Positions 11,600-23,382 of a stretch of DNA of 23,382 nucleotides are shown here, piece after piece. The stretch is from a virus (Duplodnaviria > Heunggongvirae > Uroviricota > Caudoviricetes). Under the pieces are notes generated by a model. It was not told where the DNA came from, made no database searches, and worked only from the letters and a program-made list of their open reading frames with translations. The position numbers were made by a program, and so were the translations under genes. The stretch spans positions 128,001 through 151,382 of IMG/VR virus record IMGVR_UViG_3300025853_000035; one strand, given 5' to 3'. Every line of letters starts with the position of its first letter. The first letter of the stretch is position 1.

Positions 11600-11839
11600 C
11601 TATGCCATAGCGCCACGATAGGTCTGGCAACGGGTCACGCGCAGGGCTTGGCGGCCAGCGAAGGCAAGGGAGTCGCGCCATGCGCCTAGTTCCGCCTCAG
11701 TCAGGGCATAGCGTGCCGCCGCGTCCGCCAGCGTGATTGCGCCCGCGTCGATAGCGGCGACAATGGCAATCTTGCGCTTAGGCGTGAAACGCGCGTTTGA
11801 GGCGGGAAGGGCGTTCAAAAGGGTTTCGATGTTGTTCAT
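11600..11839 (-). CDS. sciP: SciP-like CtrA inhibitor (DUF1153, small HTH protein)
   Basis: LPASNARFTPKRKIAIVAAIDAGAITLADAAARYALTEAELGAWRDSLAFAGRQALRVTRCQTYR follows the recalled SciP pattern LP....RW..RRK..VV.AV.GG..S..EA..RY.L..EE...W......G...LR.TR.Q.YR. Confidence 0.8.
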   Translation of the reverse strand: MNNIETLLNALPASNARFTPKRKIAIVAAIDAGAITLADAAARYALTEAELGAWRDSLAFAGRQALRVTRCQTYRGAMA

Positions 11840-11987
11840 TGCCTGTCTCCATTTGGTTAGTGATTCGTTTATCTATTATTCCACCGATTCGGTCAAGCAC
11901 ATTATCCTTAATATCTCATGCCATTTCGTTAACCATATCTGTTAGGGTTAATATCCATGGCTTTGCTGTTAACCCTAACGCCTAGCA

Positions 11988-12109
11988 GGCACGGGCAGGG
12001 AAGGCCGCTAGGGCAGGCAGGGGCACGGGCAGGGAAGGCCGCTAGGGCAGGCAGGGGCACGGGCAGGGAAGGCCGCTAGGGCAGGCAGGGGCACGGGCAG
12101 GGAAGGCCG
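11988..12109 (+). repeat. 34-bp G-rich tandem repeat, ~3.6 copies
   Basis: Unit GGCACGGGCAGGGAAGGCCGCTAGGGCAGGCAGG; period 34 (ACGGGC at 11991, 12025, 12059, 12093). Confidence 0.95.
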
Positions 12110-12155
12110 GAATCGAAAGGGCCGCCCTAGGGCGGCCCTTTTGGGGTGGCGGCCC

Positions 12156-12434
12156 TTATGCTTGGGCCGCTTTCCACTTGGCAATTTCAGCCTGCCGACG
12201 GGCCTCAAAATCACCCGTTGCGTAGGGGCTGCGGCCATGGGTGAAGCTGGAGTCGGCCCGTTCGATCCGCGACTTTTTCGGCAGATTGCGGTCGCTGTTA
12301 TCGCTCAGCATGACTTCACAACGGCCATACTTGTAAAGCGCCGTTTCGTGAGCCTGACGCTCAGAAACCGCCGAAATGAAAGCCACGAAAACCTTGTTCT
12401 TGTAGATTGCGAAGGTGGGGATGTTCTTGGCCAT
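12156..12434 (-). CDS. Hypothetical protein, 92 aa (cassette 2)
   Basis: Start reassigned to the ATG after GGAGACAGAC (MAKNIPTF...). Confidence 0.75.
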   Translation of the reverse strand: MAKNIPTFAIYKNKVFVAFISAVSERQAHETALYKYGRCEVMLSDNSDRNLPKKSRIERADSSFTHGRSPYATGDFEARRQAEIAKWKAAQA

Positions 12435-12714
12435 TGTCTGTCTCCGTTTGCGTCTCGATGACTTACTTCTAGGGCCGATTTTTGATTCGGTCAAACACTT
12501 TCTGCAATTATTTTGGCGCGTCACTTCCTCCACCAAAACAGGCGGATTCATGATCTAGGCCGCTAGGGCGGGCGCGTCATGGCCCGCTAGGGGCGGCGCT
12601 GGGCGTCGATAGGCCGCGCCGGGCAGTCTGGCCGCGCTTTGCCGCTAGGCGCGCTCCTTGGGCGTCTGGGCGGCTCCTACGGGCGCAAAATGACCGCGAT
12701 CCATAATTAGGCCC

Positions 12715-12855
12715 TCAGAAACCGGCTTGCAGCTTGCTGAAAACCTCATTGACGAAATCCGCCACTTCCATCGCCACGAACACGGCACCGACCGCGACCG
12801 CAATCTTTACAGAAAATCCGCCGATCAGCAGGCCAACAATTCGGTTCATGTCCAT
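12715..12855 (-). CDS. Small membrane protein, 46 aa (cassette 3)
   Basis: MDMNRIVGLLIGGFSVKIAVAVGAVFVAMEVADFVNEVFSKLQAGF after GGAGACAGAC. Confidence 0.7.
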   Translation of the reverse strand: MDMNRIVGLLIGGFSVKIAVAVGAVFVAMEVADFVNEVFSKLQAGF

Positions 12856-13020
12856 GGTCTGTCTCCTTTCCAGACATAGGATGGACGCGGCGACCGATTC
12901 GGTCAAGCACTTTCTCCACTTATTTTTCGACTCGTTATGGTTAACGCGGCTGGGCAATTTATTAACCTTAACAGATTGTTGGGGCGCAAAAAAAGGGAGG
13001 CTTTCGCCTCCCTCCTTGGC

Positions 13021-13365
13021 TTAATGGCCGTAGTTGCAGCCGATATAGTAGAGCCGCCCGGCGACCAGATAAGCGATGTCCGCCGATCCGCAGCAGCCCG
13101 CATTAGCGGCTTCCTCATAGGCCGCCCATTCGGTGGCGCGGTCGGCGAAGGCGGCGCGATAGTTGTCGCGATAATCCTCGTCCGCAACCGCGTCATGGAA
13201 AAGCGCGTGCGCCTCTTCCACCGTGGCAACCGCTGCCAGCGCGCGGACCATGGTGCGCTCGCCCTCGAACGCGAGGAGGGCCGCAGCCGCCTCCGCAGCG
13301 GCGAGGTCCGCAGCCTCGATCACCGAAGCGGAGCAGTTGGAGCGGAGGAAGAGGAAGTAGTTCAT
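13021..13365 (-). CDS. Hypothetical protein, 114 aa (cassette 4)
   Basis: GGAGACAAG RBS; C-terminal GCCGS...IGCNYGH; terminator follows. Confidence 0.8.
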   Translation of the reverse strand: MNYFLFLRSNCSASVIEAADLAAAEAAAALLAFEGERTMVRALAAVATVEEAHALFHDAVADEDYRDNYRAAFADRATEWAAYEEAANAGCCGSADIAYLVAGRLYYIGCNYGH

Positions 13366-13437
13366 GGCTTGTCTCCTAGCCGGGTTGATGAGTGATGATT
13401 CTCATATTCCACCGATTCGGTCAAGCACTTTGTTTGC

Positions 13438-21571: not shown

Positions 21572-21724
21572 CTAAGCCGCCATCTCCTCCAGAACCTTGT
21601 TAATCGCCGCTTCCCGGCTCATGCCGCCCTTAATCAGGGGCTGGGCTTTCGTTTCGATCTCGTCGGCCAGTTGGAAGGCAATGGCGCGAAGTTCGCGGGG
21701 CGATCGGCGGGTCGGCTGGGTCAT
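21572..21724 (-). CDS. Hypothetical protein, 50 aa (cassette 18)
   Basis: MTQPTRRSPRELR... after GGAGACAGAC; ends in MAA. Confidence 0.7.
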   Translation of the reverse strand: MTQPTRRSPRELRAIAFQLADEIETKAQPLIKGGMSREAAINKVLEEMAA

Positions 21725-21825
21725 TGGTCTGTCTCCGGTTTCGATGATTCGGTTTCTCATATCCCACCGATTCGGTCAAGCACTTATTCCACAAAAAGAA
21801 AGGGAGGCTTTCGCCTCCCTCCTTT

Positions 21826-22086
21826 TCAGGCCAGCCGCCCGACATAACAGTAACTGTTATATTGTTCGGGGTGAATCTCACCGTCCTTGCAAAGCATGTC
21901 GGTCCAGTTGTTGAACGCTTCGGAAATGGCCGGTTCGTCGTCCTCGCCATATGCCTCGATAACGTCGGGCAGGACTTCGGAGTCGAAGCGTGCGCTCAAC
22001 TCCTCTTCGCTGGCGATTCCGCCAAAATCCACGGCGTAGGATTCGACCATGTCCAGCAGGTCCACGCGGTTCCAATTAATGGCCAC
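21826..22086 (-). CDS. Acidic phage hypothetical protein, 86 aa (cassette 19, second gene)
   Basis: GTG start with GGGAGG RBS; AFNNWTDMLCKDGEI motif. Confidence 0.75.
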   Translation of the reverse strand: MAINWNRVDLLDMVESYAVDFGGIASEEELSARFDSEVLPDVIEAYGEDDEPAISEAFNNWTDMLCKDGEIHPEQYNSYCYVGRLA

Positions 22087-22174
22087 GGCGCGTCCTCCCC
22101 TTGGCGATCCGCTGGGCGAGGGCGGCGATGCGCTTGGCGCGCTCCTCGCGGGCTTTTTTCTGGCGGGCGGTCAT
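22076..22174 (-). CDS. Basic Arg/Lys-rich peptide, 32 aa (cassette 19, first gene)
   Basis: MTARQKKAREERAKRIAALAQRIAKGRTRRGH directly after AGGAGACAGAC. Confidence 0.6.
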   Translation of the reverse strand: MTARQKKAREERAKRIAALAQRIAKGRTRRGH

Positions 22175-22337
22175 GTCTGTCTCCTTGGCGGCTTGATTGC
22201 CGTTGATTCGTTTCTAGGGCAGGGGACCGATTCGGTCAAGCACTTATTCCAGAAAAAGAATGGTTAATGGGCTGGGCCGCCGTGTTAACCTTAACGAATG
22301 GTGAGGCCCAAAAGAAAAGGGCCTTTCGGCCCTTCCC

Positions 22338-22589
22338 TTAGAAGGAACGGTCAGCCATATCCTCCAACGTGCAAACCAGCCCGTCGAAGTCTTCTTCCGG
22401 TCCCAGCAATTCGGCCATCTCGATAGCCATGGGCAGATCGACGCCGTGGTCGTCCGCCAAGTCGCGGATATAGCCGTAGCGATCGAAGCAGCCGTCCTCT
22501 TCGTAGCGTTCGAGCGGGATGGTGCGCGCCGCGTTAAGCCGGAGGACGGTGGCGAGGGGGATGCCTTCCGGCGAGCGAAGATTGGTCAT
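22338..22589 (-). CDS. Acidic phage hypothetical protein, 83 aa (cassette 20)
   Basis: MTNLRSPEG... after AGGAGACAGAC; LLGPEEDFDGLV..LED motif. Confidence 0.75.
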   Translation of the reverse strand: MTNLRSPEGIPLATVLRLNAARTIPLERYEEDGCFDRYGYIRDLADDHGVDLPMAIEMAELLGPEEDFDGLVCTLEDMADRSF

Positions 22590-22755
22590 CTGTCTGTCTC
22601 CTTGCAGCTTGCTTGCTGCTGATTCGTTTCTGGCATTGTCAGATGATTCGGTCAAGCACTTATTCCAGAAAAAGAAATGGTTAACAGGCTGGGCGATCCT
22701 GTTAAGGTTAACGGGAAGGCCGGGCGCAAGAAAAGGGAGGCGAAAGCCTCCCTCC

Positions 22756-22968
22756 TTAGTGGACCTTGTTGCCGCGCGCGTCGCGCTGAAAGCGTCCCTT
22801 GATATTGGACCGGGCCAGATTGGAATGGAGCCGGGCCAGATGGTCGGCGGCTTCCCGGCACGTCCGACTCCATGTCGTCGTGCCGACATATTCCCACCGC
22901 TTGAGAGCTTCGCTGAATACGAAAAGGTCAATCTTGGGATAGTCCCGCTTGTCGCCATAGCTTACCAT
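22756..22968 (-). CDS. Hypothetical protein, 70 aa (cassette 21, second gene)
   Basis: GGGAG RBS, overlaps the upstream stop, terminator follows. Confidence 0.7.
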   Translation of the reverse strand: MVSYGDKRDYPKIDLFVFSEALKRWEYVGTTTWSRTCREAADHLARLHSNLARSNIKGRFQRDARGNKVH

Positions 22969-23252
22969 GCGACGACTCCCTTTTCCTTGGCGTCGTGGAA
23001 GTCGGGCAGGACGGCTTCGCTGATAGGGCGCAGGCCGCTAACCGGGCTGCAACGGCTATAGCTTTCGCCCTTGAAAAGCTGGAAGCCCAACAGGCCGGGC
23101 TTGACGAAGCGCAGGCGGTGCGCCTGTTCGCGGGCGGCAGCGCTGGCGCGCTCCTTGCTGAAACGCCCGTCAATCTGGACAACGCCATCCGAGCCGCATG
23201 TGGGCGAAAGCTGGCCGGAAAGGTTGGCGTGATAGAATACGGCGAAAAACAT
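22962..23252 (-). CDS. Hypothetical protein, 96 aa (cassette 21)
   Basis: MFFAVFYH... after GGAGGAGACAGAC; CGSDGVVQIDGR. Confidence 0.75.
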   Translation of the reverse strand: MFFAVFYHANLSGQLSPTCGSDGVVQIDGRFSKERASAAAREQAHRLRFVKPGLLGFQLFKGESYSRCSPVSGLRPISEAVLPDFHDAKEKGVVAW

Positions 23253-23382
23253 GGTCTGTCTCCTCCGGCTTGCCTGCCGGTGATTCGTTTCTGTCATTGT
23301 CCGCCGATTCGGTCAAGCACTTATTCCACAAAAAGAAAGAGGGGGCGTTAGCCCCCCCCCCCCCCCCCCCCCCCCCCCCCCC

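Follow-up and report, generated by a model that had tools for sequence, protein, structure and literature searches.

A cassette array resembling promoter-early stem-loop regions in a putative phiCbK-like siphophage

How can a phage hold a long row of small, unrelated genes under one set of expression signals, and by what route do such genes come and go? The question is raised by the final 23,382 bp (bases 128001-151382; hereafter the window, meaning this whole stretch) of the 151,382-bp IMG/VR virus record IMGVR_UViG_3300025853_000035, where a first-pass annotation had described a 12-kb array of 21 co-oriented promoter, ribosome-site, gene and terminator cassettes. Structural genes in the first 10 kb of the window share 76–79% DNA identity with Erythrobacter phages XM05 and vB_EliS-L02 (L02) and with Sphingobium phage Lacusarx, all phiCbK-like siphophages, and the phage is best classed as a large Lacusarx/phiCbK-like siphophage of Sphingomonadales (Erythrobacter type) with a marine or freshwater host. 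We consider it probable (about 0.7) that the array is an early-gene region of ∼25 self-contained transcription units, occupying the interval between the large terminase and the PhoH and portal genes and reshuffled at its near-identical intergenic modules. The closest known system, by sequence organisation, is that of the promoter-early stem-loops (PeSLs) of T4-type phages (Arbiol et al. 2010; Comeau et al. 2014).

The repeated module, its cargo and its place in the genome

A search with the 17-mer core AAGTGCTTGACCGAATC, allowing up to three mismatches, located 21 minus-strand copies between 11886 and 23322, spaced 292–814 nt apart, together with one weak plus-strand match in the window at 7533; shuffled sequence is expected to yield 0.05 copies. 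GGAGAC lies 47–61 nt 3′ of the core in 21/21 copies and is followed by a start codon, and the exact ribosome site GGAGACAGAC is present in 18 units. A GC-rich hairpin with a T-tract ends 19 of the 21 units, with the stem AGGGAGGC/GCCTCCCT common to seven of them. One or more GTTAAC boxes stand upstream in 16 units, and the five units without boxes still keep the core. Read along the minus strand, the module begins with the GC hairpin and T-tract, followed by the 12-mer box GTTAACCTTAAC or its reverse complement GTTAAGGTTAAC (box spacing 6 bp), by GTTAACCAT ∼16 nt beyond, and by a T-rich stretch closing in CTGGAAT. The core then supplies TTGACC (–35); 17 nt on comes a TAGAAA, CAGAAA or TATCCN hexamer (–10) and then CGAATCA, so that each promoter contains two GANTC sites ∼24 nt apart. 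An optional short hairpin, GGAGACAGAC, the start codon and one or two small genes complete the unit. One long intergenic block recurs identically at 17076-17126, 20300-20350 and 22633-22683 and, one base shorter, at 22217-22267. The co-oriented cassettes, the order of their parts and the recurring block had all been described in the first-pass annotation, and each is borne out. The extent given there holds within the window; the array itself is larger, as four further co-oriented core copies at record 409-2552 bring it to 25 units over ∼14.5 kb. Thus 25 of the 28 core copies in the genome sit within the array. The other three are on the opposite strand, at record 10142, 25603 and 46350 (+); the latter two have a matching ribosome site and open reading frame (ORF; 60 and 311 aa), and a script search found neither at 10142.

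The leader between promoter and ribosome site takes two forms. In about 45% of modules the ribosome site is closely preceded by a hairpin of 4–6 bp with an AAGCAA or AATCAA loop (for example at 23265-23280, 22604-22619 and 18340-18355), and modules lacking it have a short CA-rich leader instead. When folded as single sequences, 28 of the 31 unique long leaders from all arrays reach –4.5 kcal/mol or lower, as against 6.7% of shuffles, with 13 different stem sequences among them. RNAalifold applied to 12 MAFFT-aligned leaders returned no structure, the 3′ arms being out of register, and Rfam and tRNA scans gave no match in the array.

The window array contains 28 credible ORFs of 32–207 aa; the 30 counted earlier are reached only with two doubtful ORFs at 11115-11587. 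ORF clustering placed no two of them in a common protein cluster, in keeping with the earlier description of the cargo as mostly unrelated. The product of ORF 16671-17033 resembles ArdA, with a Pfam ArdA match of 1.3e-5 (26.3 bits, just below the 27-bit cut-off) and a match of 1.2e-7 to phrog_2059, 'anti-restriction protein'. ORF 11600-11839, in the last unit, matches Pfam DUF1153 (1.6e-17), has PDB relatives 2oa4 and 2jrt, and finds its best NCBIfam match in 'CtrA inhibitor SciP' at 6e-18 and 64.8 bits, under the 100-bit equivalog cut-off; by these scores it is clearly a DUF1153/SciP-family homologue, not an equivalog. PDB sequence searches with three cargo proteins produced nothing useful, and a full-text literature search on DUF1153 returned no papers. 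Eleven of the 28 proteins end in alanine, four of them in Ala-Ala, compared with 14% alanine overall (binomial p ∼9e-4). Across all arrays the enrichment is modest (24%, as against 19% of long background ORFs), and the alanine ends might conceivably act as a built-in degradation tag.

In XM05 the terminase gene, a 1.5-kb gap, ∼45 small genes with 31 cores, the PhoH and portal genes and the head and tail genes succeed one another on a single strand, and the gene order of the present record is the same. The counterpart of the XM05 large terminase is a 587-aa ORF at record 4107-5870, assigned by position alone and not by family scan. In Lacusarx the interval from the terminase to the PhoH-like gene is a 10.5-kb region of twofold read coverage, read as a direct terminal repeat (PMC5648845), and the phiCbK terminal repeat begins in or just after the terminase gene (PMC3556154). 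Because its interval is syntenic with both, the array is probably, for the most part, a long direct terminal repeat.

Variation among related arrays

The exact 17-mer AAGTGCTTGACCGAATC occurs in 36 IMG/VR loci, which were stitched into ∼14 contigs with co-oriented arrays of 16–38 copies each. It was not found in L02 or Lacusarx, whose equivalent interval has an equivalent architecture: terminator, GTTAAGGTTAAC, GTTAACC, TTGACGAATCA, ∼20 nt, AGAAACGAATCA and GGAGAC(AGAC). In L02 a strict double-GAATC promoter pattern matches 19 times, every time between the terminase gene and the record end. The repeats and their order are thereby conserved in at least four phage lineages, and since L02 and Lacusarx keep the architecture, the parts list would predate the lineage of this window. 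The L02 GenBank record (OL955261.1 128000-150063) annotates ∼16 genes over a 19-kb array with at least 24 promoter and ribosome-site units; many small cassette genes there are therefore unannotated.

The cargo varies much more. Clustering the ORFs of 16 arrays gave 156 clusters, 73 of them singletons, and a partly conserved backbone order that is broken by presence/absence differences, replacements and changes of order. About 15 families are common to this genome and to arrays other than that of its near-twin, in a different order. The array is poorly conserved relative to XM05, whereas the structural genes are 78% identical, and DNA comparison of the arrays resolves blocks of 0.4–3 kb at 80–94% identity with unrelated sequence between them.

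Such turnover could have arisen in two ways. The near-identical modules would themselves be the substrates for homologous or short-homology recombination, by which units are deleted, duplicated, replaced or reordered; alternatively, the modules would be regulatory parts only, their likeness maintained because strong and uniform early expression is selected for, and turnover would occur by illegitimate recombination anywhere, followed by selection for whole units. The most direct evidence comes from contigs 3300008094_000044 and 3300025845_000015, which are 99.95% identical over 20 kb apart from one 771-bp difference. This indel is exactly one promoter-to-promoter unit, and the junction in the shorter genome is a seamless hybrid module, derived from the left copy through GTTAACCATT and from the right copy from GTGCTTGACC. 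The crossover falls within the 12-mer AAAGTGGAAAAA common to both module copies, between the proximal box and the –35 hexamer and not at the box. In the near-twin contig V34072 (94% identical), homology with this genome stops at ∼22277, inside the upstream module of unit 3. Among 13 arrays, 116 of the 186 unique homology-block ends lie in modules (–110 to +75 of the core), compared with 53.5 ± 6.2 expected from random placement, and none of 2000 simulations reached 116. Whole units are duplicated in tandem, as 16|16 and as 11|11 in two different contigs. Finally, lineage-specific variants are common to most module copies within a genome, CTGGAAT preceding the core here and in the twin and GTGGAAA in XM05 and others, a sign that the copies exchange sequence.

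Three points temper this case. The roughly twofold enrichment of block ends is inflated, because the events are not independent and because BLAST blocks between related cargo run into the shared modules by construction; blocks could also end in modules if exchange took place elsewhere and selection retained intact units; and the 771-bp indel is the single clean recent event. About 38% of block ends lie outside modules, and the 12 identical bases at the junction are few for classical homologous recombination. The view of the modules as regulatory parts only draws on that inflation by construction, on the block ends outside modules and on the short junction, and is nevertheless unlikely: against it stand the exact one-unit indel with its hybrid module, the whole-unit duplications and the variants shared within genomes, as well as the finding that PeSLs, a comparable element, experimentally recombine and form circles (PMC2839356). 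Taken together, the alignments of relatives, in which cargo differs and breakpoints concentrate in the repeats, make a good comparative case that cargo is exchanged at the repeats, and the homology-driven gain, loss and shuffling proposed in the first-pass annotation agrees with them.

Promoter signals and host circuitry

In the preferred reading, host RNA polymerase would fire all units early after injection, and the terminators would keep the units apart and shield the late genes downstream. Host polymerase is favoured because a genome search found no phage sigma factor or RNA polymerase and because the –35 element is of host type, a perfect-type TTGACC set 17 nt from a weak, TAGAAA-like –10; for single-subunit RNA polymerase the negative is a weak one, as the control search also found nothing anywhere. 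An activator may assist, as the –10 is weak by Escherichia coli standards. In its position, in its small ORFans and in the strength of its ribosome sites, the array matches early or pre-early modules such as that of SPO1 (PMC6873191).

The units might instead be middle, late or conditional genes whose promoter needs a phage or cell-cycle factor, acting for instance through the TTAAC boxes, in the manner of the CtrA-gated 'lytic deferment' genes of phiCbK-like phages. The weak –10 and the CtrA/SciP-like boxes upstream of 16 promoters fit such a factor, and CtrA activated terminal-repeat promoters of phiCbK and Cp1R7A-A1 in assays, having been shown to bind in both (Mascolo et al. 2022, PMC9437464). 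The –35 element and its spacing, the negative searches for a phage sigma factor or RNA polymerase, and the retention of the core in the five box-less units all speak against it. So does the expression of the terminal-repeat genes of SPO1 (PMC6873191) and T5 before all others. Late or conditional use is accordingly improbable, more so than a purely regulatory role of the modules.

Within the early-gene reading, the promoters carry signals that point towards host control. The consensus for GcrA is TGATTCG/YGAKTCK (PMC4647560). On the lower strand, the GANTC (CcrM) sites of the promoters read CGATTCG or TGATTCG and so conform to it, and a site adjoins the –35 in nearly all copies; TGATTCG follows the –10 in 196 of 227 unique modules, and its density in the array is 19 times that in the remaining genome. 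L02 keeps the GANTC pair; Lacusarx keeps the site beside the –35 but is variable at the second, with a single match to the strict double pattern. The array is enriched 26-fold in GTTAAC and has 13 occurrences of TTAACCAT, as against 3 elsewhere. The motif found for SciP by chromatin immunoprecipitation sequencing is (G/A)TTAACCAT(A/G), which holds a CtrA half-site (PMC4083442); GTTAACCAT equals this motif, and the last unit of the array encodes the SciP homologue. Phages of the phiCbK/Lacusarx group have terminal repeats rich in CtrA sites (Mascolo et al. 2022, PMC9437464). Neither a phage-encoded GcrA nor an N6/N4 methyltransferase was found. We tentatively suggest, at less than even odds, that through the modules early expression is tied to the CcrM/GcrA and CtrA/SciP circuits of Alphaproteobacteria, the phage SciP homologue providing feedback. 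A fuller version is more doubtful: the GANTC pair flanking the –10 would let the methylation of injected DNA and host GcrA set promoter strength, CtrA/SciP-type boxes would gate the units by host state, phage SciP and perhaps an RNA directed against the ribosome site (see below) would switch the set off, and the same module would be the recombination joint. If so, any newly captured gene would come under cell-cycle and epigenetic control at once.

Several observations weigh against the reading as a whole or against parts of it. Promoter use, timing and termination are deduced from the DNA sequence, and a scan for E. coli-type sigma-70 promoters recovered 1 of the 21, the weak –10 causing the rest to be missed. 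Taking TAGAAA as the –10 puts the centres of the GANTC sites near –27 and –3, as against published GcrA target sites at ∼–20 and +2 to +30 relative to the start (PMC4647560). Canonical CtrA full sites (TTAA-N7-TTAAC) number only two in the array, and an interpretation of the TTAAC boxes as such sites was rejected on that count. Mascolo et al. reported GcrA and SciP sites to be without positional bias in the phages that they analysed (PMC9437464). The terminal-repeat placement is drawn from synteny only. A comparison with V34072 did not link the two ends of the record, as its units there differ and it fails to span the join. The window and the record end in a 31-base poly-C run at 23352-23382, which falls in a terminator stem and probably arose as an error of sequencing or assembly; a circular assembly of the genome, with its repeat collapsed, was probably broken there, within the array. 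Lastly, scans against Pfam, PHROGs and NCBIfam yielded a functional assignment for two of the 28 cargo proteins. Of the host-takeover and anti-defence cargo proposed in the first-pass annotation, then, the ArdA-like protein and the SciP homologue stand, and the other 26 gave no match or matched only PHROGs of unknown function.

Unit inventory, neighbouring features and known analogues

Table 1. Units of the array in order of transcription, and features at its downstream border (window coordinates)
Feature	Position	Strand	Contents
Unit 1	22662..23322	–	core 23306-23322; ORFs 22962-23252 (96 aa) and 22756-22968 (70 aa); terminator; cargo without cluster partner in any relative
Unit 2	22246..22661	–	promoter, leader hairpin, ORF 22338-22589 (83 aa), terminator
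Unit 3	21786..22245	–	promoter; ORFs 22076-22174 (32 aa) and 21826-22086 (86 aa, start overlaps); terminator
Unit 4	21494..21785	–	promoter straight after preceding terminator, no TTAAC boxes; ORF 21572-21724 (50 aa)
Unit 5	20905..21493	–	ORF 21002-21424 (140 aa)
Unit 6	20329..20904	–	ORFs 20624-20845 (73 aa) and 20425-20631 (68 aa)
Unit 7	19662..20328	–	ORFs 20013-20255 (80 aa) and 19759-20016 (85 aa, lipoprotein-like N-terminus)
Unit 8	18961..19661	–	ORFs 19460-19591 (43 aa, basic) and 19056-19448 (130 aa)
Unit 9	18398..18960	–	ORF 18506-18898 (130 aa; phrog_5680, unknown function)
Unit 10	17725..18397	–	ORF 17821-18327 (168 aa, acidic)
Unit 11	17105..17724	–	ORF 17255-17665 (136 aa, Cys-rich)
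Unit 12	16576..17104	–	ORF 16671-17033 (120 aa), ArdA-like anti-restriction candidate
Unit 13	15762..16575	–	ORFs 16206-16505 (99 aa) and 15873-16178 (101 aa, own GGAGACAGAC)
Unit 14	15262..15761	–	degenerate core (2 mismatches); ORF 15358-15702 (114 aa)
Unit 15	14500..15261	–	ORF 14570-15193 (207 aa; phrog_5162, unknown function)
Unit 16	13955..14499	–	ORF 14043-14429 (128 aa)
Unit 17	13431..13954	–	ORFs 13658-13885 (75 aa) and 13438-13638 (66 aa, hydrophobic); no terminator ahead of next promoter
Unit 18	12913..13430	–	ORF 13021-13365 (114 aa)
Unit 19	12501..12912	–	ORF 12715-12855 (46 aa, hydrophobic)
Unit 20	11903..12500	–	ORF 12156-12434 (92 aa; cluster 0, 1-2 copies in most relatives), then tandem repeat 11988-12109
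Unit 21 (last)	11460..11902	–	ORF 11600-11839 (79 aa), SciP/DUF1153 homologue; terminator 11466-11491
PhoH-like gene, downstream array border	10153-10962	–	Pfam PhoH 8.9e-69; order as in XM05
Non-coding stretch between PhoH and portal	9570-9984	–	two words complementary to the shared ribosome site
Portal gene	7730-9712		downstream of PhoH

The two borders of the array have features of their own (Table 1). At its head, between the terminase-position ORF and the first promoter (record ∼2600-3020, minus strand), eight GTTAAGGTTAAC boxes stand in a row and are preceded by ∼6 iterons of the type ATGGAYCGAGGYCATTTTGC; like iterons and box clusters occur at the equivalent place in Lacusarx (L050:6510-6930) and L02 (L051:4137-4485). 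Possible roles are as a packaging start, a repeat boundary or an origin. At the other end, between units 20 and 21, comes a 34-nt sequence repeated perfectly in tandem (3.6 copies); a tandem repeat of 20 nt is similarly placed in L02 (L051:19408-19563). The last unit is followed by a strong palindromic terminator with an 11-bp stem. No credible ORFs were seen from the last unit to PhoH (11020-11599), and this region includes, at 11512-11546, a 12-nt repeat of GTGATTCGTTTG in 2.9 copies with a GANTC site in every copy. The non-coding stretch between PhoH and portal begins after a TTGACA-type promoter near 10050 and stops before a terminator near 9530-9560. Its words at 9974-9983 and 9573-9582 (–) are each complementary to the shared ribosome site at 9 of 10 bases, as judged by word presence only, and it may possibly encode a common off-switch RNA against that site.

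The T4-type promoter and stem-loop modules and the SPO1 host-takeover module, named as analogues in the first-pass annotation, were well chosen. In PeSLs, a promoter, a stem-loop and a Shine-Dalgarno sequence form a motif that recurs ahead of ORFans in hyperplastic regions, where it mediates modular shuffling (PMC2839356; PMC4122927). Both systems place a composite intergenic motif (terminator stem-loop, A/T-rich stretch, host-type promoter and Shine-Dalgarno sequence) before small ORFans in a hyperplastic region, and in both, close relatives differ by whole units with junctions in the motifs. Here the composite motif is matched at the level of sequence only, by 21/21 cores with TTGACC and GGAGAC and by 19/21 terminators; the region of small genes of unknown function is hypervariable, and the indel junctions fall in the motifs. 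The present array, known from sequence alone, differs in belonging to an unrelated lineage (a siphophage of Alphaproteobacteria), in the unrelated sequence of its motif, in the GANTC pairs and TTAAC boxes that the module also holds, and in being more regular and contiguous, with 25–38 units in one co-oriented block that is probably in a long terminal repeat.

The pre-early region of T5 lies in a long terminal repeat. The SPO1 host-takeover module, likewise in a long terminal repeat (Stewart et al. 1998, cited in PMC6873191), has, like the present array, ∼25 small genes in a probable or known terminal region of ∼10–13 kb, and their promoters and ribosome sites are of the kind seen in early genes with high expression. 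SPO1 has several multi-gene operons with demonstrated host shut-off, whereas here nearly each gene forms its own unit and the terminal location follows from synteny. The terminal repeats of phiCbK-like phages, Lacusarx and Cp1R7A-A1 (PMC9437464) share with the array the phage group, the genome interval, many small unknown genes and intergenic TTAA(C)-type words. That study scored CtrA sites with a position-specific scoring matrix and described neither a standardised promoter, ribosome-site and terminator unit nor a bias of GcrA/SciP motifs; here TTAA-N7-TTAAC is nearly absent, 12-mer boxes with 6-bp spacing and GTTAACCAT take its place, and a GANTC pair is fixed in every promoter.

Like integron arrays, the present array is a one-directional row of small, unrelated, exchangeable genes, and the first-pass annotation had called it integron-like. 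The movement of cassettes by a site-specific recombinase at a conserved site such as the GTTAAC boxes is, however, scarcely credible and was rejected: the box between units is conserved irrespective of orientation and the genome encodes two Phage_integrase-domain ORFs (record 71684-72259 (–) and 40507-40902 (+); 85.8 and 39.5 bits), but these lie ∼68 kb and ∼38 kb from the nearest array edge, no integrase was found in the window, as had been noted, there is no attC-like structure, every unit has its own promoter in place of a single common one, GTTAACC/GTTAAGG misfit the GTTRRRY core, five units lack the box, and the resolved junction lies off it. Exchange apparently proceeds instead through homology between the regulatory repeats. 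The two Phage_integrase-domain ORFs occur in a phage otherwise of the virulent phiCbK/Lacusarx type.

The structure of the array, as read from its DNA, is real and very regular, and its possible link to the host cell cycle is of interest. The findings suggest that the principle of PeSLs, by which repeats are at once expression signals and recombination joints for accessory genes, also operates in phiCbK/Lacusarx siphophages of Alphaproteobacteria. If the array is in the long terminal repeat, as it probably is, it would enter the cell first. With more than 150 families of small proteins between them, the arrays are a place to seek host-takeover and anti-defence functions. They also offer a concrete, testable link between phage early transcription and the CcrM/GcrA methylation control and CtrA/SciP regulation of the host, for which an isolate, XM05 on Erythrobacter sp. 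JL475, exists.

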